Source of the DNA: Clostridiales bacterium
GTDB lineage: Bacteria; Bacillota; Clostridia; Oscillospirales; Oscillospiraceae
Length of the DNA: 64,000 nucleotides
Direction of reading: 5' to 3'
Assembly (NCBI GenBank): GCA_021205695.1
Contig: JAJPXB010000029.1
Coordinates: 5,582-69,581 of the forward strand
Shown in pieces: positions 20,789 through 37,348 of the stretch. Below the pieces are notes generated by a model. The model was not told the DNA's origin. It saw only the letters and a program-made list of their open reading frames with translations, and ran no database searches. The position numbers were made by a program, and so were the translations under genes. The number at the start of each line of letters is the position of its first letter. Position 1 is the stretch's first letter.

Positions 20789-20915
20789 TTCCGCATAATA
20801 TAATCAGGCAAAAATAGAGTACATCAATAACAGAGAACAGAATTTTGGGCTAGCTACGGGCATAATAACATATGACCGTTTCTGTTTCATATAAAGCGGA
20901 AAAACAATTTTTGTT

Positions 20916-21182
20916 GTGGCTCTGGTTTTATATTTTTTCATCTACTCCATGTTGTCTCCTGTTTTACAGGGCGTTCTGTTCATCGTCATGTGTGCAGGAA
21001 GCATTGTCGCCAGCATCGCCATTCTTCGCTATCTTGACCGCCTCAGCCTAGAGAGGCGAGACGCAGCGTTGAGAAGGGATTTGGTCAAACTTGCAGGTGC
21101 GGATGGAGAAAAGATATTCCGTGAAATTAAACGGAAAGAGGCAGAAGAGAAGGGCATGCGCAAGAAAACAAAAGAGAAATGA
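20916..21182 (+). CDS. Small hypothetical membrane protein (first ORF of the low-GC island)
   Basis: 88 aa with a GTG start (an ATG 11 codons in is an alternative). Two hydrophobic helices are followed by a Lys/Glu/Arg-rich tail. It is co-oriented with and 41 nt upstream of the next gene. Confidence 0.45.
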   Translation: MALVLYFFIYSMLSPVLQGVLFIVMCAGSIVASIAILRYLDRLSLERRDAALRRDLVKLAGADGEKIFREIKRKEAEEKGMRKKTKEK

Positions 21183-21223
21183 AATCATTCAACCAGGCTA
21201 TCTATCTATGAGGAGGAAGAAAA

Positions 21224-23446
21224 ATGTATTGTCCTAAATGTGGTCATCAGATTCCTGACGGCAGCCGGTTCTGCCCTGTTTGTGGATGTGATCTCTCTGC
21301 GTACCAGTCTAATGTGCGCCGGCCCAATGACAAACCGGTCCCGCCTAAGCATACCCATAACCCGCTTCCTGTCAGGCAGATCGGCATAGCGGTGGCGGCA
21401 GTGGCAGCGGTGGCAGTTATTGTCGCTGTTGTTTTCGGGGTGCGGGCGCTTTTTTCCGTGATCGGAAATAGCAGCAACGCCTATGTGTACCTGTCAGACG
21501 GAGACTACGAGCTGATTACCGATCTGAGCAAAGGAGATATTATTGAGATCGCTTCCAGCAGGTCTGAATATACATATTCGAGCCTGTTGTCATTCAGCCC
21601 GGACGGAAAATATGTATACTACTACACGAAGTATGACTCTTCGAACAGGACCGGAACGCTGTGCAGAGCCGAGTACGGGAAACTGAAATCGGACTCCAGC
21701 AAGAATGATGACTATATCGTGACCATTGCGTCGAATGTGGCTCTTGGGTTCCAGTGCATCGATGACGAAACCGTGATTTACAAAAATGGCGACGATACGC
21801 TGTATTATTACGATGGCAGCGACGTGACACAGCTGGCGAAATCGGTCAACGAGTTTTATACGGAAGGTACAGAACGCGTCGTGTATACGACCGGGACTTA
21901 TGACGAAGGATACACGTTATATGGCGTGGATGTTACCGATCCGGACAGTAAGGTGAAGCTGGCATCCAACTATGCGGGCCTTTACATCGCAGAGGACTTT
22001 GACAATATTTATTATACAAAAACGGATAGCGACTACAACGCAATGCTGTATGTGGTCGGCTTTGACAAGGACTCTGAGCAGATTGGGAAGAATGTCAACA
22101 TACTGGAACTCGACGACGGGACAGTATATTTCACAGCCGAAAGCGGAGAGACGCTTTCCCTCTACGATTACGTTGATGATACATATGCGTCCCATGACGA
22201 AGGCGTTACAGAACCGGATAAGGATGATTACCTGATTCCTACCTATTCTTATAACCAACTTTCCGTTTCAGATAATGAGGACGACTATGATGAAATCTAC
22301 ACGTCCTGCAGCAAAACAGTGTATTTTTTCCATACGGCAATAAAAAACAAGACTTCTTCCAGCTATACTCTCGCGCAGGAGTTTACTGAAAAGTATCTGG
22401 ACAGTGAAAATTCTGATGGGTATTTTGTTGTCACAGAAACAATCAAGAAAGAACTTCAGGAAATGTGTGATGAATACGGTCAGGGTTATGATAATGAGTG
22501 GCTTGAATTTTGTTTTTCCAAGGAAGAGGATGGAACGGAGGTTGACGAGGATGCTTATTACGCTGCATACAGTGCATACGAAGAGGCGGCAGACCGGATT
22601 TACATCCGGGAAACGCTCCAGAACAGCGAAAACGATTATGCGCTTAAAACGCTCTACTGTTATGCAGACGGCAAACTGACTGCTGTCGCTGAAAATGTGC
22701 TCTCGACAAAGTACTGCAATGGCGCCGTTTTGTACAACACAGCAGATATGGTCACGGAAACAGTCAGCATGACAAGCGTTTACTCAATAAGCGATGTGAC
22801 GGCCCTGTTCGCTATTGATTACTCGGCGGAGAACTATCTGCTGTGTTATGGAACCACAACACCGGCTCAGGTGTCGGCAAGTGCCGCAGAGGACATGGAT
22901 GACGCCTATTATGATTCCGGATATATCTCTCTGCTTGTGATTGGCTCGGGTGTATATATGACCAGCGATGAAGACATTTATTTTGCTGAAATCAGCAACA
23001 ACACGTTGGGCGAGTTTACTTTCGTCAGCGATGACGCATATGTGCTGATGTATGACGATTCCGGAATTTATTATGAGTGCGGCGGCTATTCGAGCAACTC
23101 TGGATATTACATCGATCTCTATAAATGCGTTGGCGGGGAAGACGAACTGGTGGCCCGGGACATTCTTGAGAATGAAATTTGTATTTACGAGGATGAGACC
23201 GTTTTGGCCTATACCGACTACACCAGCTATGGTTATGAGCTGACCATATTTGATGCAAAAGGCGAGAAGGCGATTATAGCGGACGATGTGAGTTTTTACC
23301 TTCGCTGTGCAGATGGCACCGTCCTGTATATAAGCGATGGGGATCTGTATTCCTATGATGACGGAGAGCGAACGCTGGTTGGCCGTGATGCTGATTGGTG
23401 CTGGGTGCTGAACACCATGGAGCCCAGCGTTACTTACAGCTACTAA
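21224..23446 (+). CDS. Zinc-ribbon/TM-anchored protein with large Tyr/Asp-rich propeller-like ectodomain
   Basis: 740 aa with an AGGAGG RBS. The N-terminus has one ribbon, MYCPKCGHQIPDGSRFCPVCG. A TM helix lies at about aa 53-77. Repeats of the SPDGKYVYYY / LYYYDG / IYYTKTD type follow. Confidence 0.85.
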   Translation: MYCPKCGHQIPDGSRFCPVCGCDLSAYQSNVRRPNDKPVPPKHTHNPLPVRQIGIAVAAVAAVAVIVAVVFGVRALFSVIGNSSNAYVYLSDGDYELITDLSKGDIIEIASSRSEYTYSSLLSFSPDGKYVYYYTKYDSSNRTGTLCRAEYGKLKSDSSKNDDYIVTIASNVALGFQCIDDETVIYKNGDDTLYYYDGSDVTQLAKSVNEFYTEGTERVVYTTGTYDEGYTLYGVDVTDPDSKVKLASNYAGLYIAEDFDNIYYTKTDSDYNAMLYVVGFDKDSEQIGKNVNILELDDGTVYFTAESGETLSLYDYVDDTYASHDEGVTEPDKDDYLIPTYSYNQLSVSDNEDDYDEIYTSCSKTVYFFHTAIKNKTSSSYTLAQEFTEKYLDSENSDGYFVVTETIKKELQEMCDEYGQGYDNEWLEFCFSKEEDGTEVDEDAYYAAYSAYEEAADRIYIRETLQNSENDYALKTLYCYADGKLTAVAENVLSTKYCNGAVLYNTADMVTETVSMTSVYSISDVTALFAIDYSAENYLLCYGTTTPAQVSASAAEDMDDAYYDSGYISLLVIGSGVYMTSDEDIYFAEISNNTLGEFTFVSDDAYVLMYDDSGIYYECGGYSSNSGYYIDLYKCVGGEDELVARDILENEICIYEDETVLAYTDYTSYGYELTIFDAKGEKAIIADDVSFYLRCADGTVLYISDGDLYSYDDGERTLVGRDADWCWVLNTMEPSVTYSY

Positions 23447-23543
23447 AGACCATTCCCCCAAAAAAGACGCCCAAAAGCAAGGCTCCCGAAAGCAGGCAAG
23501 GGCGAGATTAGAGGAACACTATAGAGCCCTTTTATCGGGGGCA

Positions 23544-23781
23544 GGAGGAAGCATATGAAGTGCCCCAACTGTGGAACAGAGAATCCGAAGACCGCTCAAT
23601 TTTGCAGGAAATGCGGATTCAATCTTGAGGGCAGGGTCTGCCCCAAATGCGGAACGCTTGTGCCAAAGGGCGCTCAATACTGTGGGGTGTGTGGAAGAAA
23701 ACTGAAGAAATCGTCGGGGAGAGGTCATAGGATCTGGAAAGTCGCCCTGGTTACTGTATTGTGCCTGGTGCTTGTGGTGGG
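23544..23781 (+). repeat. Copy 1 of duplicated RBS + double-ribbon + TM module
   Basis: Hand alignment to 27508-27745 gives 238 nt with no indels and 16 mismatches (~93% identity). The shared stretch starts at GGAGGAAGCATATG. Confidence 0.9.
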
Positions 23782-26700
23782 TGGCTTCAGCGTAGCGTGG
23801 AAATTCGTCTGGAGCGATGATGCACAGCTTGTGCAGGCTGCCGAAAATTATGCGGAGGTGAACGAGGCGCTGCTCGCCGTCACCACTGCGGACGGCTACG
23901 ACGACCTGACCACGGCGGAAAAGGCGGGGCAGGTACTCGCCGCCCTGGACGACCTGGCGGACGAGGGCAAGGTGCTGGCCGACTCCGTGGGGTACGACGA
24001 GGCCTACCCGCTCGTCTATTATTCCTATGCGGACGGCGCCTATGGCGGCGTGATGCTGGAGGAATTTGCGGAGGGAACCAGCGGCGTGGGCGAAAGCACC
24101 TACAATACCTCCATAAGCTACGTCGAAGGCGGCACAGCGGACATTGACCCCTGGCCGTCTGTTCCGACCTTTGCGATGGAGGGCTCTCCCTATGCGGACG
24201 ACCTCTCAGCGCTGATTGTATGTGATTTGGGGGAAGGATTCGATGACTATCTGGGGTTGATGCAATCGTTGCAATCCAGTTGGAATGAAGCATATCTGGA
24301 AACGACCCTGGTGGAGGAGGGAACCGTTGCCTTTTATCGGACTGGGCTTTCCGGCTACGATCTGGTGGTGATACAGGAGCACGGCATCATTTATAACAAT
24401 AATCCGGCTGTTGTACTCCAGGAAACGTCTGACACCTTACAAAAAATCCGTTACAGCATTGGCGCTACCGTCACAGAAGAGGAACGTGCGATATTGGAAG
24501 ATATTCAGAGCAATCGCACTGTGCTTTTACTGCTCGAGGACGACCAGTTTCATTTTCTTCTGCTGCCGGAATTCTTTTCCGATTATTACGCAGATGACGG
24601 GCTGGAGGACGCAATCGTTTGGATCGGCTGCTGCGATGGCTATCTCAACGACACATTGGTATCCGCCTTTGCAGACTGCGGTGCAAAGGCCGTCCTTGCC
24701 CCCACGGAAACGGTCAGCACAACGTACAATTTCCTGATGCAGGACGCTTTTGTGGATATGCTGTTGTACGGAAACACAGTGGAGGAGTCCCTTACCTTTG
24801 CCCAATCCCAATGGGGTTCGAACGACAGAGAGTTTAAGGAGGCCATCCTTGGCGTAGAGGACGATGACCCAGCGGAGGTTCGCATCTATTGCGGCGGCGA
24901 TGAAACCCTGGTCACGCTGACGGTGGAGGGGCAGGATGCGCTGAAGGGCATCTGCTCCGGCACGGTGATCGACGCAGCAGACAGCAGCGTGCCCATCGTC
25001 GGCGCGACGATAACCGTGACCGACGCAGACGGGACGGTCGCAGAGGCGACCACGGACGAGACCGGCGCATTTGAGATAAAGCTCTACTTGGGGACCTATA
25101 CCGTCCAGATCGAGATGGAGGGCTACCGGACCGTATCAGACGAGGTGACAATTGAGGCGGGCGAGGAAAACGCCATTCTGATCAGCCTGTCTGCGCTGCT
25201 CTCAGACGAGAGCGCCAGGGCAGCCTATCAGCAGTTCCTGGACAACGGGGAATACGCAGATAGAGTCGGCGAGGTGAGCGGCATTCAATATGCCATCTAC
25301 GATGTGACCGGAGACGGGATCAGCGAGCTTCTGCTGCACTGCTATTCCTCAGACGTAGGTGTTGATGGGACATATTATGTCTACAGCTACAATGGCGATG
25401 TATTTTTCATCGGAAGCTGTGAAAACGTTTACTGGGAGGGAGCGTATTATTCTGCCGAAAAAAATAACCTGGTCATCGTTGCAAACGGCGATTCTGACTG
25501 GATCTCCTATGAGTTCTATGATGTGACCGACGATGTGACCGACCAGTTGACGCTGACGTACGAAATGGGGCGCATATTTTACGAATCTGGCTCGGAGCCA
25601 GACACGGACGATGTCCTGGACGGCCACTTTTATATTGCGGACGCCGGAGTGATGTCCAGAGATGTCACAGAATCGGAATGGAACAGTCATATCAATGAAC
25701 TGACGGAGATCGTGTTTTCCGACCTGTCCGCCACGAACGATGATTTGCTTTATCAATATATCCCTGACGATGCATTGATATACAACGGGCATTCCTACTA
25801 TTATTTTGCTGATTATAGCCTGGAATGGGAAGACGCCAATGCGTATTGCGAGTCTCTTGGTGGGCATCTTGTGACGATTACTTCTGAAGAAGAGCAGAAT
25901 GCGGTTTACAATTATATCTCTGCACTGGCAGGAAATGTTGACATTTGGATTGGAATATCAGATTCTGATGAAGAAGGGAACTGGTCTACCTGGATAACCG
26001 GAGAAACAGTCACCTATACAAATTGGGGAAGCGGAGAGCCAGATGACTACTCCACAGGTCAAGATTACGGTGTAATTTGTTGCGGGACAAGGAATGGAAG
26101 TACCTATAACGTATTACCGGGTCAATGGGATGATGTGAATTCTATTAGCGATGAGGTAAACGGTAGTTTTATCTGTGAATGGGAATATTGTGCGGAGCAG
26201 AACAGCAACACCGACGATCTAACTGAAATTGAAGAGACCGACCTGTCGGACGTTGCCCATGGTACTTGCGGCGATGACCTGACATGGACCTATAGCTCCA
26301 GCGGCGTGCTGACCATTTCCGGCACAGGAGAGATGTGGGGGTGGAATCCTTCCAGGGAAACGAATTCGGCGTACACAATGACGGCGATCACCTATGAGGA
26401 GATTCCATGGTACGATTATAAAGACCAGATCACCTCAGTCGTTGTGGAGGATGGCGTCACTTCCATTGGAATCTGTGCCTTTTATGAGTGTACTAGCCTA
26501 GCCAGCATCTCCATTCCGACCAGTGTGACTATCCTTCACAGTCAGGCGTTTTTTGGCTGCACAAGTCTGGTCGAAGTGATTATTCCCGACAGTGTGACCA
26601 GTATAGACGACCAGGTATTCTACAATTGCATCAGTCTGACAAGCGTTGTGATCGGAAGCGGCGTGACAACAATCAGCTATGCCGCTTTCTATGGATGTAG

Positions 26701-27070
26701 CAGTTTGACAGATGTCTATTATGCGGGCAGCGAGTCGGAGTGGGCTTCTATTGATATCGCATCCAACAATGAATGCTTGACCGCCGCTGCAAGCGCCGAA
26801 CAGCAGCCGTTTTATGGAGTCTGGTGCGCGGCCACAAAGAAGAGCGCCGATGCGCAGAGCGTAGCCGAGCAACTGCGCGAGCAGGGCTTCGATGCGCAGG
26901 TTTGCCTGACCACCAACTGGGAGGGGCTGAACAGCGAGGCATACTATGTCGTCACAGCCGGGCGGTATGATACCGAAGCAGAGGCCAAGGCTGCTTTGGC
27001 GGAGGTGCAGGCCGTCGGCTATTCGTCTGCGTATGTGAAATATACAGGAGATTGGAGTGGGAACGGATGA
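23555..27070 (+). CDS. Double-zinc-ribbon/TM-anchored multidomain surface protein (CarboxypepD_reg-like, C-type lectin-like, BspA-type LRR, SPOR)
   Basis: 1171 aa. Ribbons are at aa 3-47 and the TM helix at aa ~59-80. GTVIDAADSS...YTVQIEMEGY spans aa ~466-545. A CTLD (WIGISD...EGNW, GEPDD, WDD, ICEWEY) spans aa ~741-878. LRRs (SIGICAFYECTSL...) span aa ~905-1070 and a SPOR-like domain spans aa ~1085-1163. Confidence 0.85.
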   Translation: MKCPNCGTENPKTAQFCRKCGFNLEGRVCPKCGTLVPKGAQYCGVCGRKLKKSSGRGHRIWKVALVTVLCLVLVVGGFSVAWKFVWSDDAQLVQAAENYAEVNEALLAVTTADGYDDLTTAEKAGQVLAALDDLADEGKVLADSVGYDEAYPLVYYSYADGAYGGVMLEEFAEGTSGVGESTYNTSISYVEGGTADIDPWPSVPTFAMEGSPYADDLSALIVCDLGEGFDDYLGLMQSLQSSWNEAYLETTLVEEGTVAFYRTGLSGYDLVVIQEHGIIYNNNPAVVLQETSDTLQKIRYSIGATVTEEERAILEDIQSNRTVLLLLEDDQFHFLLLPEFFSDYYADDGLEDAIVWIGCCDGYLNDTLVSAFADCGAKAVLAPTETVSTTYNFLMQDAFVDMLLYGNTVEESLTFAQSQWGSNDREFKEAILGVEDDDPAEVRIYCGGDETLVTLTVEGQDALKGICSGTVIDAADSSVPIVGATITVTDADGTVAEATTDETGAFEIKLYLGTYTVQIEMEGYRTVSDEVTIEAGEENAILISLSALLSDESARAAYQQFLDNGEYADRVGEVSGIQYAIYDVTGDGISELLLHCYSSDVGVDGTYYVYSYNGDVFFIGSCENVYWEGAYYSAEKNNLVIVANGDSDWISYEFYDVTDDVTDQLTLTYEMGRIFYESGSEPDTDDVLDGHFYIADAGVMSRDVTESEWNSHINELTEIVFSDLSATNDDLLYQYIPDDALIYNGHSYYYFADYSLEWEDANAYCESLGGHLVTITSEEEQNAVYNYISALAGNVDIWIGISDSDEEGNWSTWITGETVTYTNWGSGEPDDYSTGQDYGVICCGTRNGSTYNVLPGQWDDVNSISDEVNGSFICEWEYCAEQNSNTDDLTEIEETDLSDVAHGTCGDDLTWTYSSSGVLTISGTGEMWGWNPSRETNSAYTMTAITYEEIPWYDYKDQITSVVVEDGVTSIGICAFYECTSLASISIPTSVTILHSQAFFGCTSLVEVIIPDSVTSIDDQVFYNCISLTSVVIGSGVTTISYAAFYGCSSLTDVYYAGSESEWASIDIASNNECLTAAASAEQQPFYGVWCAATKKSADAQSVAEQLREQGFDAQVCLTTNWEGLNSEAYYVVTAGRYDTEAEAKAALAEVQAVGYSSAYVKYTGDWSGNG

Positions 27071-27306: not shown

Positions 27307-27507
27307 CTTGCTTGCCAGCAGCCAGTTGAACTGTCTCACTGTTTTTCCACAATAGCCAGTCAGTATACGATGGGTCTGCACGCAAACGGTGCATAGATCT
27401 CGTTGCTTTTTAGCAGAGAGGGCAGGTTTGGTCAAATAGCAGAAGGCAATGGATGCGTGCAGGGAAAAGCGCGTGGACGGCTTTGTGTATATGCTTACAT
27501 GAGGGAT

Positions 27508-27745: not shown

Positions 27746-30700
27746 AACCGGATTTATCGTTTGGGAACATTGGCAGTCGAACGCTGGAGAGGAATCCGCC
27801 TACGACAATCTGCTGATTTTGACCGACAAGTTTACCGACAGGGCGGTGACGGATGAGGACTCAGCGATTCTGGCGGCTCAGGACGCTGCGGAATCGCTAG
27901 GGTTGCAAAATGCCATGGAGGAGCTGGAACCGCTGAGTACCGCAGAGGCATACGGAGACTCCTATTACCGTCTACAGCAGTATTACCGGGGATACCCTGT
28001 GTATGGCAGAGCGGTCGTCGTGCTGGCCGATGAAAACGGTGAAGCGTTCACTCTGGTCGGGAATGTGGCGGACGTGGATGCAGATTTGAACTTTACGCCC
28101 TCTGTCACACAGACGGAGCTGGAGAAAAGCCTTTCGGCCTATGCGGAGGAGGAGCTGGAATTGAGCGGCGAGGTCTCTCTGGAGGAGGCCTCCGATGATG
28201 CGCTGGTCATCTATGACCTGTATGACGAGGAGACGCACCTGGCATACGAACTGTCCGCCTCGCTCGACGAGGAGTTGTACACGGTCGTCTTGGATGCCAA
28301 CGACGGGGAGGTGCTGGTGGCTTGCGAAACTCTGTCTAGTGCATCTATTACAGGGACAAATTCGTCTGGAACAGTCACAGTGAATGCCTCCGTGAGTGAT
28401 GAAAATGAAGGTACATATTTTCTTTATGACTCGGAACGTAAAATTAGCATTCTTGATTTAGATGGAACAACAAGTCAGAAAACCGTTGGTTGGAGCGGAA
28501 ATGGAAGAGGCGGTGATTCTTCGGACGCAGAAGATTCTACAAAAGCTATACTTGGAGAGCAGGTTTCTTCGACCGAGACAAATAGCGAGGGAGCTGCCAT
28601 TTTTTCGGATGATGCTATAAATTACCTAGATACTCTGTCAAAGATTTATGATACGTATGAAAACTGGGGAATTAATAGCTTGTACACCATTTATGCGAAT
28701 TACAGGGATGGCTTCGACAGTGGAATGAACGCTGTAGGTGGTGTGGTCACAGTAGATGGAACTACATTTGGTTATATCAGCGCTGGGTTAGTTACTGGGA
28801 CTTCGGATATTGATGCGTACGCTCATGAGTATGCCCATTATATTATGTATTCGCATATTACTTTGACATCCAACTACAGGAGTGCAATTGCAGAAGGCTT
28901 CGCTGATATATATGGCTGTTTGGTTGAGTGCGAAATAGAAGGGTGGGACGAACCAGATTGGAGTATTACAGGAGATAATATTAACGTGTATCGTGATATG
29001 GCGGAACCTACTGCTTCGGGAAATGCAGAATATTGGGATGGTGAAGAAGATTCCGAACATGAATACAACGAATCCACAATTATTTCTCATGCTGCTTACC
29101 TTATGTGGCGAGGAAAAGACAGTAAAATTGGCATAGGCCAAACATATGGTTCCTTATCAGTGGATGAGTTGGCAGAACTGTGGTATCGAGCTATGCTCAT
29201 GTTTCCCACTGACTGCGATTATAATCATGTGTGCCAGCTGGTAGAACTGGCAGCTGAGCATATGTCCCTTTCTGATCAACAGAAAGAATGTATTTCGTGG
29301 GCGTTTTATCAGGTTGGAATTGCAGAAACCTATACTCTTGATGCAGATTTCAATCTAACTTTGTATGATACAAATGGAGACAGTTATGCGGAGTATTATG
29401 CTTCTGTCGAGGTAATCCTTTCGGAGGAAACACTCTCAGAAAATACTGCCATTGTCTACGAACCTGGTGTGGATGGAATACTTTCTTTTCATCTTGACAG
29501 TGGAAAAGCATATAAAGTTACATTAATTGACAATCAGGATGATACAAAAAAGTTTTTATTCTATGCATATATCACTGATAAAAACGGATACGATACGCTG
29601 ACACTTTACACAGACTTTGGCACCGTAAAGACCGGAACCCTATCCGGCACCATCGTGTCCGCATCCGACAGCTCGACAGCCATCGGCGGTGCGTCCGTCA
29701 CGGTTCTGGATGGGGATACCGTAGTAGAAGAACTGACCACAGATGAAGACGGCGCATTTGAGGCAGAGGTTTCCCCAGGAACCTATACCGTCCAAATCGA
29801 AATGGACGGCTATGATGCAGTGGAGCTGACGGTTTCTGTGGATCTGCGGGAGGATGTGGACGTGGGAGAGATCACCATGACCTCATCCTCGAACGAAAAG
29901 GTGCTGCGGGCAAAATTGAATGAGCTGATTGAAACCTATGGAATCTTTGCGTCCGGACAGAGCGGAACGGTATCGAACTATGTGGTTCCCAGTTGGCTCA
30001 ACCCGACAGGTATCCTCTCCGCAACCATCCTGGATCTGGACGCGGACGGAAGCCTGGAGCTGCAAGTCTGTCGCACGGAAAAATGGGAATATGGCGGATA
30101 TACATATTATAAGGTGCTGATGGAGGTTTACGAAGCGGATACGCAGGCTGCGTATCTGGCGACCTATATGTGGTTTGATCCATACGGCACCAGCGCCGAT
30201 GTATATGACGACACTTATGTCTATCCACTTACATATGTGTCGCTGACGGAGACAGAGAACAATCAGATTCTGGCAACAGTTAATGCGGCGCAGACAGAGA
30301 ACGGGTATTACCTTGTATGCGAGTACTATATGCAGGGGGTTCTCGGGGACGGCGGATACGGAGCGACCTGGGTGCTGGAATACCAGAACGAAACCCTACA
30401 GTATGTGTGCAGTTTGGAAAACGGTGACGTGGGCAGCAGCGTGGATACCGGTTTTGCCTACGAAGAATTTGACAACGAGGATCCTGCCCCGTTCCCCACC
30501 AAGATAACCATGTATTATGAACCGGAGGTGACCGACCTCAAACAATATTATTATTATACAGACTTGGAGGAGTGGGACTGGACTCCAGGAGCAATTAAAA
30601 GAGAGTTTTTTGCGAAATATGGCCTCAAATTTGCCTCGACAGAGACGGAGTTCGTATTTAGCTATGACAACTTCGGCGGCTATGGAGACTACTATGGATT

Positions 30701-31382
30701 CAGCGGAACGACCTCCGGTGACGCCGACACGGAGTTGGAATTCAGACTTGTCATCAACACAACAGCCAGCGATTATGAATCCGGCACATTCACGTTTGAA
30801 GAGAAACTGACGCGCGGGAATAGCCTGCTGGACAGCCACGGCGATGGCGAGGCTGAAGGCGACAGCGAGGCTGAAACATCGGGCAATGCGGATGTCAGCG
30901 AGATCGTGCTCGACACGTCGTACGCAAACGACTATGAATTCGGCAATATCTGCGCCTATGATTCCGACGGAAACCTGGTCTGGTCCTATGAGACCGGCTC
31001 CTATCCCGCAACGGAGCTCGGCGCAATCAGTGAGATCGGGCTGAGAGACGGATGCTACTACTTTGTGGAGAGCGGCACCGTTGTCGCCATGGATGCGGCA
31101 ACGGGTGAGATCCTGTGGAGGAACAGCGATTTTGGGGGCTCTGGAGCGTCGGCGTTTGCGGAGGACTGCATCTGTCTGGCAGGGTATTACGGTCCGGACT
31201 TTTACGCCGTGTCCTATGACGGGACGACGCTCTGCACGATAAACAGCTTTGGCACCGAATACTATTGGGCGTCCAATGTCACGATATCGGGCAATACGGC
31301 GCTCGTGTCCCTGAACGATGGCTATTATGAAGCCCGGATAAACCTGGAAACATGGGAGTATACCATTTCCGACGTGGGCTGA
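27519..31382 (+). CDS. Double-zinc-ribbon/TM-anchored thermolysin-like (M4) metalloprotease with CarboxypepD_reg-like and PQQ-like repeat domains
   Basis: The start is ATG 27519 after GGAGG; the track start 27453 is over-extended. 1287 aa with ribbons + TM as in 23555. FTP/PepSY-like propeptide segments are present. HEYAH is at 28824-28838 and AIAEGFADIYG has its Glu at 28893-28895. A CarboxypepD_reg-like domain spans aa ~707-787. C-terminal repeats resemble GNLVWSYETG...ATGEILWRN. Confidence 0.85.
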   Translation: MKCPNCRTEQPETAKFCGKCGFKLEGRVCPKCGTLAPKGAQYCGVCGRKLKKSSGGGHRIWKVALAIVLCLVLVVGTGFIVWEHWQSNAGEESAYDNLLILTDKFTDRAVTDEDSAILAAQDAAESLGLQNAMEELEPLSTAEAYGDSYYRLQQYYRGYPVYGRAVVVLADENGEAFTLVGNVADVDADLNFTPSVTQTELEKSLSAYAEEELELSGEVSLEEASDDALVIYDLYDEETHLAYELSASLDEELYTVVLDANDGEVLVACETLSSASITGTNSSGTVTVNASVSDENEGTYFLYDSERKISILDLDGTTSQKTVGWSGNGRGGDSSDAEDSTKAILGEQVSSTETNSEGAAIFSDDAINYLDTLSKIYDTYENWGINSLYTIYANYRDGFDSGMNAVGGVVTVDGTTFGYISAGLVTGTSDIDAYAHEYAHYIMYSHITLTSNYRSAIAEGFADIYGCLVECEIEGWDEPDWSITGDNINVYRDMAEPTASGNAEYWDGEEDSEHEYNESTIISHAAYLMWRGKDSKIGIGQTYGSLSVDELAELWYRAMLMFPTDCDYNHVCQLVELAAEHMSLSDQQKECISWAFYQVGIAETYTLDADFNLTLYDTNGDSYAEYYASVEVILSEETLSENTAIVYEPGVDGILSFHLDSGKAYKVTLIDNQDDTKKFLFYAYITDKNGYDTLTLYTDFGTVKTGTLSGTIVSASDSSTAIGGASVTVLDGDTVVEELTTDEDGAFEAEVSPGTYTVQIEMDGYDAVELTVSVDLREDVDVGEITMTSSSNEKVLRAKLNELIETYGIFASGQSGTVSNYVVPSWLNPTGILSATILDLDADGSLELQVCRTEKWEYGGYTYYKVLMEVYEADTQAAYLATYMWFDPYGTSADVYDDTYVYPLTYVSLTETENNQILATVNAAQTENGYYLVCEYYMQGVLGDGGYGATWVLEYQNETLQYVCSLENGDVGSSVDTGFAYEEFDNEDPAPFPTKITMYYEPEVTDLKQYYYYTDLEEWDWTPGAIKREFFAKYGLKFASTETEFVFSYDNFGGYGDYYGFSGTTSGDADTELEFRLVINTTASDYESGTFTFEEKLTRGNSLLDSHGDGEAEGDSEAETSGNADVSEIVLDTSYANDYEFGNICAYDSDGNLVWSYETGSYPATELGAISEIGLRDGCYYFVESGTVVAMDAATGEILWRNSDFGGSGASAFAEDCICLAGYYGPDFYAVSYDGTTLCTINSFGTEYYWASNVTISGNTALVSLNDGYYEARINLETWEYTISDVG

Positions 31383-31609: not shown

Positions 31610-32500
31610 ATGGGTATTTTCGACAGATTTGGAAAGAAAATTTCCGACACAGGACGGGATGCGATTGAAACGGGAAAGGGGTATGCCAATATATCCAAAT
31701 ACAACGGGATGATCTCGGAGAACAACGAGAAAATAAGACATCTCATGCAGGAAATTGGCGAGAAGTACTGTCAATTGCATATGGAAGACGCAGAACCGAC
31801 ATTAAGAACACTGGTCAGCGCAGTGGCTGATATGCAGGCGCAAAACCGGGAGCTGGAGAATGAAATCCTGGATTTGCGAGGGCTGAAAAAGTGCCCATTT
31901 TGCGGGGAAATTATATCAAAAAGTATCGCCTATTGCGATAAATGCGGTAATCGGGTTTTGTCGGAAGATGTAGTGGTTTGCCCGAACCCGAAGTGCAGGG
32001 AGCTTTTGCCTGCAGGAACCCTGTTCTGCTTAAAATGCGGTAAACGCGTGGTCAGCGATACACCGGCCAAAACGCCGCAGCTGCAAAAGTGTGCGAGATG
32101 CGGCGCTTCGTTGGTGGACGGAGCCAGGTTTTGCTCTGTCTGCAGCGAACCTGTCCTTGGGCAGAAGGCGGAGGAACAGCCGCCTGCCCTGCCGCGCAAG
32201 TGCCCCAAGTGCGAGAGCCCCGTGTCTGAGGGGGACGTGTTTTGCCCCGTTTGTGGCACGAAAGTGATCGGCGGGGAATCTACGCAGGTACAGCCCCTTA
32301 CGGGGGCAGCGGATGCAGGCGAGGAGACTGCTCAGAAACAGGAGACGTCTTCCGGGAAACAGGCCAACGTGCCTGATTACGCACAGGTAAACGACATTGT
32401 GAATCAGATTGCGTCAGAGACAGTGGCTGTCTGCCCCCGGTGCGGAAGCAAGCTGGAGCCGGACAGCGCATTCTGCTCCGAGTGCGGCCTTAAGCTGTAG
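31610..32500 (+). CDS. Soluble protein with N-terminal coiled-coil-like segment and five zinc ribbons
   Basis: 296 aa with no TM helix. The ribbons are CPFC..CDKC, CPNPKC..CLKC, CARC..CSVC, CPKC..CPVC and CPRC..CSEC. Confidence 0.85.
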   Translation: MGIFDRFGKKISDTGRDAIETGKGYANISKYNGMISENNEKIRHLMQEIGEKYCQLHMEDAEPTLRTLVSAVADMQAQNRELENEILDLRGLKKCPFCGEIISKSIAYCDKCGNRVLSEDVVVCPNPKCRELLPAGTLFCLKCGKRVVSDTPAKTPQLQKCARCGASLVDGARFCSVCSEPVLGQKAEEQPPALPRKCPKCESPVSEGDVFCPVCGTKVIGGESTQVQPLTGAADAGEETAQKQETSSGKQANVPDYAQVNDIVNQIASETVAVCPRCGSKLEPDSAFCSECGLKL

Positions 32501-32616
32501 ACGGCGGCTGAACAGAAGCCGGATACGGCAGAGCAGGCCGCAGAAGTGAAAGAGAAAGAAGCTCAAGCGGCTTGCCTGCCTGTTTGCATCCGTGGCGCGG
32601 GAAAGGAAAAAATACT

Positions 32617-34257
32617 ATGATCTGCCCAAACTGTAAAAGAGAAGTGTCGGATTCTGCCAAATTTTGTCCGAAATGCGGCGAAAAAATAGAAAAAGAAGTG
32701 CTGTGCCCTTCGTGCGGAAAACCAGTGTCCAAGCAGATGACATACTGCCCATGGTGTAGCAACCTATTGCAGGAGAGCCAGCAGAAAACGGCCTTCTGTA
32801 TGACGTGCGGGAAACCGGTGCCTCCTGGGGAGACATGTTGCTCCGACTGCCAGAAAAAGAAGAGGCGGAAAAAACATTTGCGTACAGCGATAATCGTGGT
32901 ATGCATTATCCTGCTGCTGGTTGTCGGAATTGTAGGCGGCTTCTATCTGTATGGACAACCGCTGCCGTTTGAAATAGGAGCGCAACAGACCGAGGATGAG
33001 ATGGACGAGGAAGCCGCATCAGAGGAAGCCGCGACGGACAGTGAAGACGGGGACGCGGCATCTGCCACTGACGCAGCTGATGCCGACAGCGAGGAGCAGA
33101 TGGCGGAGGCGACGGTTGAGGAGGCACCTGAGGAGACGCAGCTGACCACGGAGCAGTGCGTGCAAATCTACGGTGACTACTATAGTGATGCCGGGTTACA
33201 GTCACAGCTACAATACATAGCGTATGACAGCAATGGGAATATCACGAACACAGAGGAAATGGGCGTGGTGTCCGTCAGCGTGGCTGACCTGAATGATGAC
33301 GGGACATTAGAGATGCTTTTGGTTCAGGTCAGTGGGGAGAACCAGGCAGGGCTCTGCATGGAAATCTACGGGATAGAAGATGGAGCAGCCGCCCTGCAGG
33401 CGTCGCTGGAGGATTTGTATCCGGAGGCTCTGGAGGCCTCTAGTGGCAGGAGAACGGACGTTGTCCAGGTCGGAGAGTCGATCCTGGTCGCCATATATGG
33501 AGACGGCGTGGCTGTGGCGTATCTCTATCAGCTCGATGAAAACGCACTGGAGCTGGTGTGGAGTGCGCAGACTGGGGACGAATGGGCAGAGAGTGAACTG
33601 GAGGAACTGACAAACAGCTGGTGCGCAGATGTACTTGCGGACTATCTGTCCACGGCGGGATCCAAATATGATGATGTAGACTATGGGAACGGGGAGCTGC
33701 TGTGCTCGTTTATTGGGAGCGGAGTCGGCAGCCAGAGTAAAACGGAGCAGGGGATCACAAATGTGTATGATTACACAGGCACCTTGGATAATGCAGAGGT
33801 GAACGAGTTTGATTTTCCGGCCGGCACAGTGGAATATAACGGACACCATTATATGGTCTGTCTGGAGACGACCGACTGGGAGAGCGCTGAACTTGCATGC
33901 GAGGAGATGGGCGGGCATTTGGTGACAATTGCCAACGCCGAAGAAAATGACTACGTGTATACATTGGCTTGCGCCTACAGTACAGAGCTGGCCTTCCTGA
34001 CCGGCGGGACTGACCATCGACAGGAAGGCACATTTGAGTGGATTACAGGGGAGCCATTTGAGTACACCTGCTGGGGCTATCTAAATGAACCGGACAACTA
34101 TCGCGGCTATAAGGAGCAGGATTATATTACCCTGTTGACATTTGACCAATCTGGCGAATATAAGGACGACAGCGGGGAATCCTGGGGGATTCACGCATCA
34201 GAATGGGACGATAAGGACGGAGGAGATAACCCCTATATCTGCGAGTGGGATTTCTGA
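32617..34257 (+). CDS. Triple-zinc-ribbon/TM-anchored protein with C-terminal C-type lectin-like domain
   Basis: The start is ATG 32617 (MICPNC...). Three ribbons, KKKRRKKHLR and a TM helix are followed by an acidic linker. A CTLD spans aa ~404-546 (HLVTIANAEEN, EGTFEWITGE, NEPDN, WDD, ICEWDF). Confidence 0.85.
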   Translation: MICPNCKREVSDSAKFCPKCGEKIEKEVLCPSCGKPVSKQMTYCPWCSNLLQESQQKTAFCMTCGKPVPPGETCCSDCQKKKRRKKHLRTAIIVVCIILLLVVGIVGGFYLYGQPLPFEIGAQQTEDEMDEEAASEEAATDSEDGDAASATDAADADSEEQMAEATVEEAPEETQLTTEQCVQIYGDYYSDAGLQSQLQYIAYDSNGNITNTEEMGVVSVSVADLNDDGTLEMLLVQVSGENQAGLCMEIYGIEDGAAALQASLEDLYPEALEASSGRRTDVVQVGESILVAIYGDGVAVAYLYQLDENALELVWSAQTGDEWAESELEELTNSWCADVLADYLSTAGSKYDDVDYGNGELLCSFIGSGVGSQSKTEQGITNVYDYTGTLDNAEVNEFDFPAGTVEYNGHHYMVCLETTDWESAELACEEMGGHLVTIANAEENDYVYTLACAYSTELAFLTGGTDHRQEGTFEWITGEPFEYTCWGYLNEPDNYRGYKEQDYITLLTFDQSGEYKDDSGESWGIHASEWDDKDGGDNPYICEWDF

Positions 34258-34279: not shown

Positions 34280-36007
34280 ATGGGAGAACAAGGGAGAGAG
34301 GAGCGATCGAAGGTTGACCAGGAACAGCGGCAGAGAAAGACAAGGTGGTATGCTATCCCCTGCGCCGTAGTCGCAGTTTGTCTCTGCTTGATTGCAATCG
34401 TCCTGGTTCTCGGCCCTGCCGACACGGAAGCGGAGGATATCGGAACCGCAGATGAGCAGACAGAGGAGGATGCTGCGGACGGGAGACAGACCGACAGCGA
34501 TGTGGAGGCGGAGGCCTCGACGTTTGCCATCTCCATCGGAGAGGAAGATCTTACCCTGATGGTGACGGCGCAGAAGCAGCTCACAGCTGTTGTTTCCGAT
34601 AAGAACGGGGACGAGGTGCCAGACAGCGTGCCCGTCACATGGGCCAGCTCTAATCCGGAGGTGGTCTCCGTCTCGGATGACGGAACGATTACCGCTCTGG
34701 CGGAGGGGACGGCACAGATAACAGCGAGCATTTCCGACGGGGAGACTGCATCGCTGTCAGTGACGGTGCTCCCGCTGAATGTGACGGAGAAGACCGTGTT
34801 TGTCCAGCCGGGGGATGTGCTGACCATCAGCGAACTGGGGCTTCTTCCGGAGGAAACGGAGTGGACAGATTTTCAGTGGTCTTGCTCTGACGAGGAGGTG
34901 GCCGCTGTCTCAGCGGGTGAAATCACCATTTTGAGCGACGGAGAGGCGGAGATTTGTGGCAGGGGAGATATTGCGCGCATCTCCTGCACCGTGACGACCT
35001 GCTTTGGCGGCAAACTCATCGCCCATCGGGGACTGAACACCGAGGCGCCGGAGAACACTGTGCCTGCCTTCGAGCTGGCGGGACAGGCGGGCGCCTGGGG
35101 AATAGAGACGGATATCGCCTCGACCGCTGATGGAGTATTGGTCTGTCTTCATGACAGCACCATAGACGCCATGACAGACGGAAGCGGCGAGGTGAGCGAC
35201 TTTACCTATGAGGAATTGATGCAGTACCATATCGATGCAGGAAGCAACGTTGACCAATATCAGGATCTGACCATCCCGACCTTCCAGGAGTATCTGGAGA
35301 TTTGCAGGGAATACGGCGCAGTTGCCGTGATCGAGCTGAAAACCCTGGCCTCTACAGCGGAGGTGCGGACGGTCTATGAGACGATCTGTGCCTGTGGAAT
35401 GGAGGAGCAATGTATTGTCATCAGCTTCCAGTATTCCTATCTCCAGGCGCTGCGCAGCTATACCCGCGACATACCGGTTCAGCTGGTGGTCAATGCTGCC
35501 AGCAAGACGAACATTTCAGAGGCGGCCACACTTGAAAACAGCGGGATCGATTTCAAAACAGGGAGTGAAGAGCTCATTGCCTATGCCCACTCCCTCCATT
35601 GCACGACGAATGTGTGGACAGTAGACACCGCCTCGGCCCAGGAGACCTGGCGAGCGGCGGGGATCGACTTCATCACGGCGAATACGGCGGAGTGGTCCGA
35701 TGAGGCAGCGTCTGACGATGGAGATGAAAACGGTTTAAATGCGGAAACAAAGGACAGGGAGTCGGTCACGCTGTTGCTTGCCTCTGATTATCAGGCAGAG
35801 GACGGTTGGCCTGCGCCCCCGGAGACGCGGACCTCCCTGCTGGACGCTGTCTATGGAGACGGCTATGTGCTGGACAACGCCATCCTGTGTGGCGATTACA
35901 CAAATCTGGAAAAAAGTACAATTATGAGACAAGCCCGGACGATTCGATTGCCGAGATTAAGTCTATCTTTTCGGAATTTGACCCGGGACTGGACACGGAA
36001 ATCATGA
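34280..36007 (+). CDS. Membrane-anchored Big_2 + glycerophosphodiester phosphodiesterase (GDPD) protein; 3' end probably frameshifted
   Basis: The TM helix is at aa ~24-45. A Big_2-like segment (VTWASSNPEVVSVSDDGTITALAEGTAQITA) follows. GDPD motifs are IAHRGLNTEAPENTVPAF...GIETDI...DGVLVCLHD. The reading frame appears to switch at the A6 run at 35910-35915. Confidence 0.8.
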   Translation: MGEQGREERSKVDQEQRQRKTRWYAIPCAVVAVCLCLIAIVLVLGPADTEAEDIGTADEQTEEDAADGRQTDSDVEAEASTFAISIGEEDLTLMVTAQKQLTAVVSDKNGDEVPDSVPVTWASSNPEVVSVSDDGTITALAEGTAQITASISDGETASLSVTVLPLNVTEKTVFVQPGDVLTISELGLLPEETEWTDFQWSCSDEEVAAVSAGEITILSDGEAEICGRGDIARISCTVTTCFGGKLIAHRGLNTEAPENTVPAFELAGQAGAWGIETDIASTADGVLVCLHDSTIDAMTDGSGEVSDFTYEELMQYHIDAGSNVDQYQDLTIPTFQEYLEICREYGAVAVIELKTLASTAEVRTVYETICACGMEEQCIVISFQYSYLQALRSYTRDIPVQLVVNAASKTNISEAATLENSGIDFKTGSEELIAYAHSLHCTTNVWTVDTASAQETWRAAGIDFITANTAEWSDEAASDDGDENGLNAETKDRESVTLLLASDYQAEDGWPAPPETRTSLLDAVYGDGYVLDNAILCGDYTNLEKSTIMRQARTIRLPRLSLSFRNLTRDWTRKS

Positions 36008-36139
36008 TTTGGCACTGGCCCCGTGGGCACAGAACGGGAAAAAGAAAAAGCTGTGTCGGAAGAAAAGACGCTAAAACGGACAAGCAACAGAGTCAGACCT
36101 CTGCGAATGACAGTATATGAACGAATCTGTAGATGAAAT

Positions 36140-36910
36140 ATGGAGGGGAATGGGCCAATGCACGGGAGAGAAATCAAAGTAGAAATTGAACAGACGATGC
36201 AAAGTGCATTTTTCAGCAGAGGTCATCTACGCCCTGTATACAGCAAAAAAGAGTCGAAAAGGATGAAACTGAAAGAGGCGTATGCTCTGGCGTTTGGTGC
36301 CTGTTTACGAATAGATGATATGTTCGCAAACGGATGCACCTATGAGGAATATGCTTGTGAGATGGACCGGCATCAGTTCGGACCTCCTGCGCAGGATCTG
36401 CCCCGAACGATGGGCTTTGCCAGGTGGAACGAAAAGGTCAGTATCCGCGTTCCATATCCTCCGCTTGATGTCACCTGTTGCCTATATGTGACGTTCAGAA
36501 TATCTGAATCGGAGAAAAAGTCGCTGCCGAAAATGAAACCGTCACGGCCTGAAGAGAGGCCGCTTCCCAAAAAAGATAAAGAGTGGATATGCCCTGCCTG
36601 TGGAGCCACTTCTTCTATTTCGACGTTCTGCTCTAATTGTGGGAGAAAAAGGGAAAGCAAAGTCGTTGCAAAGTCAAATATCTGTTATTTTGATGCGAAG
36701 GGTGAAATGTGCGAGAAAGAAAACGCCACAACATTCCTTATCACAGAATATGATAAAGACGGCAACCTCATAAATTCTGTTCATGGCTTATACAGGGAAT
36801 GGGTTTGCTGCTGTTGTGGACACAGGAATTCTGCTGATGTGCGTTTCTGTGTTTATTGTGGGAAAAGAAGGGATCATAGGGAAGGGTTTTATGATGAATC
36901 GAAACGATGA
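36140..36910 (+). CDS. Soluble hypothetical protein with two C-terminal zinc ribbons
   Basis: 256 aa. The ribbons are CPACGATSSISTFCSNCG and CCCCGHRNSADVRFCVYCG. No TM helix. The start codon is uncertain because several in-frame ATGs are available. Confidence 0.7.
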   Translation: MEGNGPMHGREIKVEIEQTMQSAFFSRGHLRPVYSKKESKRMKLKEAYALAFGACLRIDDMFANGCTYEEYACEMDRHQFGPPAQDLPRTMGFARWNEKVSIRVPYPPLDVTCCLYVTFRISESEKKSLPKMKPSRPEERPLPKKDKEWICPACGATSSISTFCSNCGRKRESKVVAKSNICYFDAKGEMCEKENATTFLITEYDKDGNLINSVHGLYREWVCCCCGHRNSADVRFCVYCGKRRDHREGFYDESKR

Positions 36911-37271
36911 AGAGCCACTATAGTTATGCCCTTTCTGTGGCGTTTCCATCGATTTAAAAATAAACCGTTGCCTGAGCTGTGACCAGCCAGGATAAATTCC
37001 AGCTTATCGGTTTGTGGTATTGTCGCTGCTGGGATTTCAACATAAAAGCTAATATAAAGTGATCCGCATCCCCTTACAAGCAGAACGCTGTTTCAGGAGT
37101 TGGCAAAACAAATGTTGGAGCAGTCTGAAGCTGGGACAAATGAGACAGACCCCTGATATTTATATCGGCTCTGTCTCATTTTGCCATATCCCATCTGACG
37201 ACCGATGCTCCAAGAGGGCGACGACGTTTTCTCGGATGTGCAATATGTCAAACTAAAATACTTGAACACAG

Positions 37272-37298
37272 AAAAGCAGCTCAGAGCGAGCTGTTTTT
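37272..37298. terminator. Bidirectional intrinsic terminator
   Basis: The stem CAGCTC/GAGCTG has an A-run on the 5' side and a T-run on the 3' side (AAAAGCAGCTCAGAGCGAGCTGTTTTTG). It lies 50 nt downstream of the minus-strand YcxB-like stop. Confidence 0.55.
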
Positions 37299-37348
37299 GT
37301 TTATGAGATGATTCCTGACTGAGGCAGTTAGCCTGCCCGGATCCACTC

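Follow-up and report, generated by a model that had tools for sequence, protein, structure and literature searches.

A low-GC gene cluster downstream of leuA in an uncultured Oscillospiraceae bacterium, probably acquired horizontally and coding for zinc-ribbon-anchored surface proteins

Where does the low-GC block behind leuA come from, and what might its genes do? The question arises in a stretch of 64,000 nt from contig JAJPXB010000029.1 (assembly GCA_021205695.1) of a Clostridiales bacterium. We refer to this whole stretch as the window, and all positions are counted from its first letter. The original prediction, made from the letters of the DNA, described here an accessory island between leuA and a tRNA-Leu gene and saw in the surroundings the classic neighbourhood of horizontally acquired DNA. 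We suggest that the region from about 20.8 to 37.2 kb is a horizontally acquired accessory cluster which lies downstream of leuA, displays a surface adhesion and foraging toolkit and has no tie to the tRNA-Leu gene. We give this reading a probability of roughly 0.6. The horizontal acquisition itself is well supported by the foreign codon composition of the block, its absence after leuA in the nearest species, the presence of a homologous cluster as conjugative cargo in Solibaculum and the AT shift of homologous clusters in other hosts.

The host belongs by its LeuA protein to an uncultured Clostridiales/Oscillospiraceae lineage with a backbone of about 63% G+C (GC). Within the window the GC is 0.622 at 1-20788, 0.509 at 20789-37300 and 0.634 at 47901-64000. 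In windows of 1 kb it ranges from 0.57 to 0.69 up to 21 kb, from 0.44 to 0.57 between 21 and 37 kb and from 0.61 to 0.71 beyond 48 kb. The comparison of the GC at third codon positions (GC3) locates the shift in the synonymous sites. Backbone genes have a GC3 of 0.826 ± 0.038 with a minimum of 0.75 (n = 25) and island genes one of 0.560 ± 0.071 with a maximum of 0.66 (n = 9), that is, the ranges are disjoint (Welch t = 10.6, p = 1e-6; Mann-Whitney p = 1e-5). The tetranucleotide distance from the backbone is about twofold higher at 20-40 kb. None of the three profiles is flat (GC3 0.56 vs. 0.83), and the change of composition directly after the leuA terminator, which had been read from spot counts of 27/60 at 21541 and 38/60 at 13561, is found in all of them; the spot counts themselves are exact. 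The borders are sharp. In 200-nt windows the GC falls at 20.7-20.8 kb, just after the leuA hairpin, and rises again at 37.2-37.3 kb, and the hairpin which lies just before this right border is probably the terminator of island transcription (Table 1). We also considered whether the island extends to 48 kb, as the GC is low there as well. This extension was dropped since the genes at 39988-45067 have a backbone GC3 of 0.75-0.82; the low overall GC at 39.9-45 kb is due to amino-acid composition and is not island-like.

We then ask whether the block is found at the same site in related genomes. The closest species-level relatives, with a LeuA 97-98% identical, are four metagenome-assembled genomes (MAGs; L001, L002, L003 and L012). 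In L001 the DNA is 90% identical over MatE, T-box and leuA, and 112 bp after leuA comes a homologue of window 7879-12856, a segment which in the window itself sits 8-13 kb upstream of leuA. In L002 and L012 yet other genes lie downstream of leuA. Over the 10 kb past leuA, L001, L002 and L012 have a GC of 0.56-0.67 and genes unrelated to the island. At none of the 80 leuA loci of species-level relatives compared does an island homologue adjoin leuA. The leuA-anchored comparison thus reveals that the block is not shared at this site by the nearest sequenced relatives. As the downstream genes differ across the leuA loci, we regard the site as rearrangement-prone and the island as lineage-specific at species resolution. 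In a database of 5.8 billion proteins no homologue of ORF2, the sole island gene (open reading frame, ORF) searched in this way, exceeds 65% identity.

The leuA locus has some features of its own. The stretch from MatE to leuA (17046-20738) is separated from 7879-12856 by 12857-17045 in the window; in L001 (positions 1-8750) the two segments are contiguous and in reverse order. Relative to L001 this reads as a translocation-type rearrangement, and its apparent breakpoint coincides with the left border of the island. A T-box leader (Rfam RF00230, 96 bits) is found on the plus strand at 18709-18953, directly upstream of leuA, which is a solitary T-box-regulated gene outside any leu operon. The LeuA protein ends in seven glutamines encoded by CAG/CAA repeats (20715-20737), and its C-terminal length differs between relatives, as matches stop at residues 556-573.

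The genes of the island recur in other Clostridia. ORF2, the core gene of this type of cluster, belongs to a family of proteins of about 770 aa which is distributed across Clostridia (184 matches, the best one 65% identical); the best named matches are from Fusicatenibacter (49%, also the best NCBI-sourced one) and Solibaculum (41%), and a metagenome scan for ORF2 relatives yielded 4 loci only. A gene similar to ORF5, which codes for a protein with multiple zinc ribbons, is located at most 10 kb from the ORF2 homologue in nine of the ten loci inspected, the window included. It directly adjoins the ORF2 homologue in L085, L094, L096, L097 and L099, lies about 8 kb away in the window, L090 and L093, is fused to an S8-VWA protein in L086 and is absent in L098. 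Frequent further members of these clusters are large S8-VWA or M4-VWA-lectin proteins and proteins with a C-type lectin domain. In the literature searched we found no description of such a cluster of zinc-ribbon-anchored lectin or propeller proteins of Clostridia. The island genes thus appear to represent one paralogous design within a recurrent and apparently undescribed type of cluster, and much of it is without Pfam coverage.

One of these loci is found in the complete genome of Solibaculum mannosilyticum (L096). Here genes for a lectin, a zinc-ribbon protein, an ORF2-like protein, a multi-zinc-ribbon protein and an S8-VWA protein are clustered. One flank of this cluster consists of VirB4/TraG-like, DUF6674 and CHAP genes; the opposite flank has a sigma-like gene, PemK and a large serine recombinase. 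We take this position to be the accessory-cargo slot of a Tn916-family conjugative element. The Solibaculum cluster and the island have in common the propeller protein, the multi-zinc-ribbon partner, a C-type lectin and a large protease, all on one strand and AT-shifted. They differ in that the window is without the backbone genes of the element, that M4 and CHAT are found here and S8-VWA there, and that the protein identity is only about 41%.

The AT shift is also seen elsewhere. The ORF2 family and its partners have a GC3 which is 0.15-0.35 below that of the flanks in six of nine host contexts (window, 0.54 vs. 0.83; L085, 0.54 vs. 0.72; L087/L092, 0.25 vs. 0.58; L096, 0.39 vs. 0.55-0.62; L099, 0.39-0.42 vs. 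about 0.6; L098, 0.46 vs. 0.77). The family is thus foreign by composition in most hosts whose GC3 exceeds 0.5. L093 and the two lower-GC hosts, L086 and L094, show no such shift. The simplest reading of the AT shift is repeated transfer from a lower-GC pool of Clostridia. In L099 the two genes of the ORF2/ORF5 type form an insertion among genes for aromatic amino-acid biosynthesis. For the window we suggest that the cluster was inserted, or left behind, at the rearrangement-prone spot past the T-box-regulated leuA. It could have arrived as cargo of a conjugative element, the backbone of which was lost or never brought along, or by recombination from the lower-GC pool.

What could the island contribute to its host? 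The genes were annotated with Pfam, NCBIfam, a simple topology analysis, two AlphaFold2 models (ORF2 and ORF3) and Foldseek. The original prediction had counted ten ORFs at 20916-36910. The plus strand and the short gaps stand, and the count is to be corrected to nine genes plus two decayed fragments; as it had stated, the domain scans give no housekeeping gene among them. The features of the region are compiled in Table 1.

Table 1. Features of the island and of its borders and right flank (window positions)
Feature	Position	Strand	Basis or remark
Terminator-like hairpin of leuA (GCCGCCGCAGAGC...GCTCTGCGGCGG)	20755..20793	+	Read from the sequence; last backbone DNA before the GC fall
AT-rich spacer, 32% GC, particular to the left junction of this genome	20795..20908	.	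GC; comparison with independent contigs
ORF1, small membrane protein of 88 aa with basic tail	20916..21182	+	Topology; GC3 0.52; GTG start
ORF2, 740 aa, zinc ribbon, helix, two predicted beta-propellers with helical insert	21224..23446	+	Pfam Zn_Ribbon_1; AlphaFold2
Direct repeat, copy 1: ribosome-binding site and zinc-ribbon/membrane-helix module of ORF3	23539..23781	+	93% identical to 27503-27745
ORF3, 1171 aa, double zinc ribbon, helix, predicted CHAT-like domain, CarboxypepD_reg, C-type lectin, BspA-type leucine-rich repeats (LRR), SPOR	23555..27070	+	Pfam; AlphaFold2
ORF3b, 68 aa, double zinc ribbon only, without membrane helix	27100..27306	+	Pfam; topology
Direct repeat, copy 2: 5' end of ORF4	27503..27745	+	243 nt
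ORF4, 1287 aa, double zinc ribbon, helix, FTP, M4, CarboxypepD_reg, PQQ-like beta-propeller	27519..31382	+	Pfam; motifs
ORF5, cytosolic protein of 296 aa, N-terminal helical region, at least four zinc ribbons	31610..32500	+	Pfam; without membrane helix
ORF6, 547 aa, three zinc ribbons, helix, region without known family, C-terminal C-type lectin	32614..34257	+	Pfam; topology; motifs
ORF7, 575 aa, membrane anchor without zinc ribbon, Big_2, glycerophosphodiester phosphodiesterase (GDPD)	34280..36007	+	Pfam GDPD 5.8e-33; NCBIfam
ORF8, cytosolic protein of 256 aa, two zinc ribbons	36140..36910	+	Pfam; lowest GC3 of the island, 0.45
Out-of-frame zinc-ribbon remnant (CPFCG...CLSCD) just past the ORF8 stop codon	36927..36995	+	Read from the sequence
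Hairpin (AATGAGACAGA...TCTGTCTCATTTT) just before the right compositional border	37130..37190	+	Read from the sequence; GC profile
YcxB-like gene, first native gene on the right, outside the island	37349..37744	-	Pfam YcxB; GC3 0.77
IS481-family transposase pseudogene, two fragments, internal deletion	37894..38701	+	Model positions 2-110 and 174-268 of 284
Degenerate SWIM-like remnant with stop codons	~38876-39120	-	Reading of the sequence only; no match in Pfam and NCBIfam
tRNA-Leu(GAG)	39481..39567	-	Perfect terminator hairpin at 39433-39477

The anchored proteins ORF2, ORF3, ORF4 and ORF6 are built alike. One to three CxxC...CxxC zinc ribbons are followed by a basic stretch, a single hydrophobic helix and a long ectodomain. 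The ectodomains of the anchored proteins are very acidic (pI, the isoelectric point, about 4; Lys+Arg 2-6%), which fits an N-in/C-out type-II membrane topology. Three further proteins of the island, ORF5, ORF8 and ORF3b, are soluble and consist largely of zinc ribbons. For ORF1 we found only a single relative, P0122, which occurs in one NCBI genome, has 134 aa and is 71% identical. We do not claim a 5' truncation of ORF1 relative to this longer protein, as P0122 is probably annotated with too early a start and both junction variants described below share one GTG start.

For the ectodomain of ORF2 the model shows a pair of beta-propellers and a helical insert, with a confidence (predicted local distance difference test, pLDDT) of 84.8. 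Foldseek matches it best to LRP6 E1E2, sortilin and tricorn and to the sensor ectodomains of BT4663/BT4673. In ORF3 the 380 aa at residues 85-465 (23807-24949) form a domain without Pfam model whose family comprises 477 clusters at 50% identity. A His-Gly pair and a Cys are invariant across 40 diverse homologues (His276-Gly277 and Cys360 in ORF3). The model of this domain has a pLDDT of 87.3 and matches best the periplasmic CHAT domain of DdvA (8RW5/8ROT); SAVED-CHAT, Csx29 of Craspase, separase and caspases are further top matches, and the entry 8TL0 is among the structures matched. Its CHAT-like identity was recognized by fold comparison alone, as a profile search against the PDB sequences gave no match and Pfam none in ten homologues. 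We therefore describe residues 85-465 of ORF3 as a predicted CHAT-like protease domain of caspase fold with a putative His-Cys dyad, which in this Gram-positive host would be extracellular.

The remaining domains of the larger proteins are mostly covered by Pfam. The C-type lectin domain (PF00059, cut-off 22.6 bits) scores 52.6 bits in ORF3 and 39.9 bits in ORF6, and the PDB sequence matches of the ORF3 lectin are the animal C-type lectins PLA2R, DEC-205, CD23 and DC-SIGN. At the positions of the calcium/sugar site both lectins have EPD and WDD in place of the canonical EPN/QPD and WND; sugar binding is thus putative. ORF4 scores 48 bits with Peptidase_M4_C (cut-off 24) and 30.6 bits with FTP (cut-off 21), and the N-terminal M4 domain of Pfam was not detected. 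The M4 motif HEYAH is located at residues 436-440 with Glu460 exactly 20 residues on, so that the catalytic motif of this putative protease is intact. At E ≤ 1 Pfam returned nothing usable for the tail of ORF7, the ORF at 35806-36120, the N-termini of ORF5 and ORF8 and the middle of ORF6. The N-terminal helical region of ORF5 looks coiled-coil-like.

We suggest the following mode of action for these proteins. The zinc ribbon together with its positively charged flank would hold the N-terminus in the cytoplasm, either as a topology lock or as an assembly handle, and the ectodomain would be displayed through the Gram-positive wall. Lectins, LRR and propellers could bind glycans or surfaces and SPOR could bind peptidoglycan; M4, CHAT and GDPD could cut proteins and phosphodiesters, for example polymers of the teichoic-acid type. 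In this respect the cluster resembles the exoproteases and adhesins of Gram-positive bacteria (thermolysin-family M4, BspA/LrrG-type LRR and GlpQ-type GDPD), and Peptidase_M4_C, FTP, LRR_5 and GDPD all score over the Pfam cut-offs. It differs from them in that a zinc-ribbon signal-anchor takes the place of the signal peptide and its LPXTG or lipobox, and in unusual domain combinations such as M4 with a PQQ-like propeller. TcaA of Staphylococcus aureus is a Firmicute envelope protein with an N-terminal zinc ribbon, a single membrane helix and an extracellular domain. Its model (NCBIfam NF053815) gives weak matches over ribbon and helix of ORF5 and ORF6, 15-17 bits compared to a cut-off of 550 bits, and the ectodomains are unrelated. 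A surface binding and degrading toolkit is the most likely function of the cluster and transmembrane signalling a less likely one.

Signalling nevertheless deserves a closer look, as it is the alternative which survives best, albeit as an unlikely one. The ectodomain would sense a ligand and would then be clipped by a protease (CHAT or M4, S8 in the relatives), and the signal would be passed on by the released cytoplasmic zinc-ribbon stub in concert with the ORF5 family. The precedent is DdvA, a transmembrane anti-sigma factor of Myxococcus xanthus (PDB 8ROT/8RW5) in which a single membrane helix links a cytoplasmic zinc-binding domain to an extracytoplasmic CHAT domain with a His-Cys dyad (H862/C907), and for which clipping of the ectodomain has been proposed (PMC11506125). 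ORF3 has the same predicted layout, a small cytoplasmic zinc-binding domain, one helix and a large extracytoplasmic part with CHAT, and DdvA is the top match of the fold comparison (PMC11506125). The modelled double propeller of ORF2 is likewise similar to the ectodomains of the Bacteroides hybrid two-component proteins BT4663/BT4673, of LRP6 E1E2 and of the Vps10 protein sortilin. Further support comes from the cytosolic ORF5-like partner, which is near the ORF2 homologue in nine of ten loci, adjoins it in five and is fused to S8-VWA in L086, and from the protease genes, which are constant in such clusters. The likeness to both precedents is incomplete, however. The N-terminus of ORF3 is a double zinc ribbon (Pfam DZR/Zn_Ribbon_1) and not the helical CHCC/HxxxCxxC anti-sigma domain of DdvA, and a great many membrane proteins of Firmicutes have a zinc ribbon of 25-50 aa as their N-terminal anchor. 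ORF3 has no clear array of tetratricopeptide repeats, carries lectin, LRR and SPOR in addition and belongs to a Gram-positive host. The island has no domain of the sigma-70 family and no gene for an extracytoplasmic-function sigma factor near ORF3, and its scans revealed no sigma factor, DNA-binding regulator, kinase or nucleotide cyclase. The identity of ORF2 to the tandem-propeller sensors is 7-11% with TM-scores of 0.15-0.33, which are low as the domain orientations differ, and ORF2 has no kinase or regulator output. Finally, an effector or adhesive role suits GDPD, SPOR and LRR better than a sensory one.

Signalling could also be part of a more far-reaching proposal, which we offer tentatively and hold to be less likely again. 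According to it the cluster would be an undescribed mobile and modular system of Clostridia in which a propeller receptor and a multi-zinc-ribbon partner are combined with exchangeable protease/lectin cassettes (S8-VWA, M4, extracellular CHAT), which acts by ligand-triggered proteolytic signalling or surface remodelling and which spreads by conjugation. If this were true, the system would be a Gram-positive, sigma-less analog of the DdvA-type CHAT anti-sigma mechanism, and conjugative travel would explain why the AT shift is found almost everywhere.

The cluster bears traces of an exchange of cassettes. The 243-nt repeat shared by ORF3 and ORF4 has sharp edges: it begins at the ribosome-binding site and the similarity ends abruptly where the membrane helix ends. 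This repeat is likely a substrate or a footprint of gene conversion, and it accounts for the breaks of short-read contigs. ORF4 is a chimera as its N-terminal 54% and its C-terminal 38% match different, unrelated proteins, each at 57% identity. The C-terminal 38% resembles a propeller protein family, and relatives with M4, VWA and Lectin_C exist. In another species, strains which carry an identical ORF2 homologue (P0048, 181 contigs) are not alike on the left side of the cluster, as seen at positions 1-3900 of L087 and L090. One type has S8-lectin-VWA and zinc-ribbon genes; in the other we find Transposase_31, PDDEXK_2 and HTH together with a multi-zinc-ribbon gene. L088 is without a small block at the right edge of the cluster. 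We suggest that recombination at the conserved anchor module could reshuffle the cassettes. In addition, there are apparent signs of local decay or turnover. ORF3b looks like an orphan or decayed N-terminal module, a zinc-ribbon remnant follows ORF8 out of frame, and the C-terminal tail of ORF7 (about 100 aa, region 35690-36120), which is without family and overlaps the alternative-frame ORF at 35806-36120, may be decayed.

Several points weigh against the reading as an acquired surface toolkit. The absence of the block is established between species, and presence/absence within the species is not shown. Synteny of the leuA region is poor in all relatives, which weakens the absence at this site as a proof of insertion. 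A donor has not emerged (the best identity is 65%), and hence a recent date of the transfer is not demonstrated. The AT shift in many hosts could reflect an intrinsic bias of the genes and not repeated transfer. The left junction from leuA to ORF1 is without confirmation by an independent contig. The functions of the products are all deduced from domains and predicted folds, and the zinc ribbon as a fixer of topology is a guess.

Some of these points would suit native, vertically inherited DNA whose low GC3 would stem from poorly expressed genes, a relaxation of codon selection, diversifying selection of surface proteins or a reduced GC-biased gene conversion. An AT shift of the family in many unrelated hosts could arise from a bias of the genes themselves, neither mobility genes nor att sites were found, and in some genomes, for example L099, the ORF2/ORF5 pair is located among housekeeping genes. 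The GC3 gap of 0.27 without overlap, however, far exceeds the expression-linked variation of the backbone (standard deviation 0.04), and an ORF2 orthologue was not found in the relatives with a LeuA 97-98% identical. Moreover, the family rides a conjugative element in Solibaculum, and the lack of a shift in the low-GC hosts L086 and L094 fits a low-GC origin better than a universal bias. We therefore consider vertical inheritance improbable.

If the DNA was acquired, did it enter at the tRNA-Leu(GAG) gene? Here the region would be a decayed integrative (conjugative) element which lost its integrase and transfer genes, with the IS481 insertion sequence (IS) and SWIM scars as part of the wreck. 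The individual parts of the right flank are as originally described: the YcxB-like gene (Pfam YcxB), the IS481-family pseudogene in two fragments with an internal deletion, the SWIM pseudogene as a degenerate remnant which neither Pfam nor NCBIfam matches, and the tRNA gene on the minus strand. The 3' end of the tRNA gene faces the island with IS and pseudogene debris in between, the homologous Solibaculum cluster is conjugative cargo and the island contains small decayed fragments (ORF3b and the zinc-ribbon remnant). The combination of these parts into a classic tRNA-linked island does not hold. From the end of the island at about 37.2 kb it is another 2.2 kb to the tRNA gene, whose 3' end at 39481 is not abutted by the island, as the YcxB-like gene of backbone GC3 with its own terminator and the IS debris intervene. 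As the original prediction had noted, a direct repeat of the tRNA 3' end is not found: its 25-mer is unique in the window even with 3 mismatches, and a search for att-like direct repeats revealed only chance-level 10-mers shared by the border zones (4 seen, about 1.5 expected). One of them, GGTGCGGATG, matches position 21096 within ORF1 to the tRNA 3' end at 39482; by the same count we judge it to be a chance match and not an att site. An intact integrase or recombinase is likewise absent from the Pfam and NCBIfam scans of the island ORFs. In such scans of the named ORFs at 17-47.5 kb (not six-frame) we found no integrase, recombinase, relaxase, conjugation gene (VirB4/TraG-like, coupling protein, CHAP/NlpC) or phage gene, and among the named ORFs at 20.9-47.5 kb not even remnants of genes for an integrase, a relaxase, a coupling protein or VirB4. 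That a mobilisation machinery once existed and has decayed, as the original prediction had supposed, may be so. Elements of the Solibaculum type, which use a serine recombinase, do not depend on tRNA sites. Since there is no att repeat and no integrase and since a backbone gene with a terminator lies in between, the tRNA-Leu gene is a mere neighbour and not an attachment site. Entry at the tRNA gene is in our view still less probable than native DNA. The IS481 and SWIM scars are separate debris and not demonstrably parts of the island. The IS481 fragments match at 82% DNA identity positions 4959-5171 of L043, another Oscillospiraceae MAG, which indicates that the IS family may circulate within the lineage.

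The acquired cluster thus resembles genomic islands without mobility genes in its sharp deviation of GC, GC3 and oligonucleotides, its apparent absence at the site in the nearest relatives, its predicted surface and accessory functions, the adjoining IS debris and the nearby tRNA gene. It differs from them in that there are no integrase, flanking direct repeats or direct tRNA junction and in that the cargo is of a single paralogous design and not a mixed bag. By composition the region is a genomic island, and its distribution at species resolution would agree with this; the tRNA, att and integrase features of such islands and those of conjugative elements and prophages are missing.

An assembly or binning artefact, that is, a chimeric contig of two organisms, is very improbable. 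The source appears to be metagenome-derived and the left junction is without independent confirmation, as the Logan contigs break at 20909. A chimera would require two precise joins, though, both flanks share the backbone composition, and the right junction is reproduced base-for-base in an independent contig. The exact island proteins are on record in two Logan assemblies only (SRR15221348 and SRR15221353); exact-protein look-ups for LeuA and the MatE neighbour gave no match, and the exact records are limited to the island proteins and YcxB. Contig L083 with 10,377 nt is an exact substring of window 27654-38030 and runs through YcxB into the IS481 fragment. As it is identical in every base across island, YcxB and IS fragment, the right junction is independently confirmed; DNA that runs from the island into YcxB and equals the window is present in two independent Logan assemblies. 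On the left, contig L082 is an exact substring which starts exactly at 20909. To the right of this point, 20909 included, contig L081 of the other sample is identical as well, and the 27 nt ahead of it are unrelated to the window. The branch point at 20908/20909 lies 115 nt to the right of the leuA hairpin and 7 nt ahead of the ORF1 start codon. The 27 unrelated nucleotides suggest a branch in the assembly graph and hence a possible second left flank in SRR15221348. Such an alternative flank may bear on mobility or rearrangement at the left border; with 27 nt the evidence is thin.

To an anti-phage defence island or a prophage remnant we give hardly any credence: low GC, a variable and accessory location and the CHAT proteases known from defence systems would fit, but PADLOC-DB 2.0 gave no significant match (only partial ones to candidate models, E = 0.002-0.006), the scan for ORF2 relatives found none in the viral contigs of IMG/VR and none on plasmids, a phage collection returned a single weak match (29% identity, an unannotated 6.9-kb record labelled 'Bacteriophage sp.'), the island scans show no phage structural, lysis or integration genes, and the CHAT domain is here predicted to be extracellular. 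The assignment to a defence system was dropped as PADLOC gave no convincing match. In our view the island is not to be filed as a DdvA-type, TcaA-type or defence system.

As such the island is routine: another high-GC gut anaerobe with a piece of AT-rich accessory DNA. Its genes bring to light a widespread and unannotated gene set of gut Clostridia, namely a double-propeller protein of about 770 aa, a multi-zinc-ribbon partner and an extracellular CHAT-like domain which is absent from Pfam. This set recurs together, is variable between strains and is able to ride a conjugative element. If the proteins adhere to or degrade surface polymers of the host or of microbes, they would be candidates for strain-specific traits of the gut niche. 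If they signal, they would represent a new type of transmembrane transducer.

Further to the right the flank contains a family-3 glycoside hydrolase (42017-45067, plus strand) in which the Pfam domains appear in the permuted order GH3_C, Fn3-like, GH3 N-terminal, with hydrophobic segments near both termini. Its neighbours are an acidic lipoprotein (39988-41286) and a multi-pass membrane protein (41305-42000), and all three genes have a backbone GC3 (0.75-0.82). The low-GC zone is bounded on the right by an AgrC-like GHKL histidine kinase and a LytTR response regulator (45368-47460, plus strand). With their intermediate GC3 of 0.71 and 0.61 these two-component genes may be an older acquisition.

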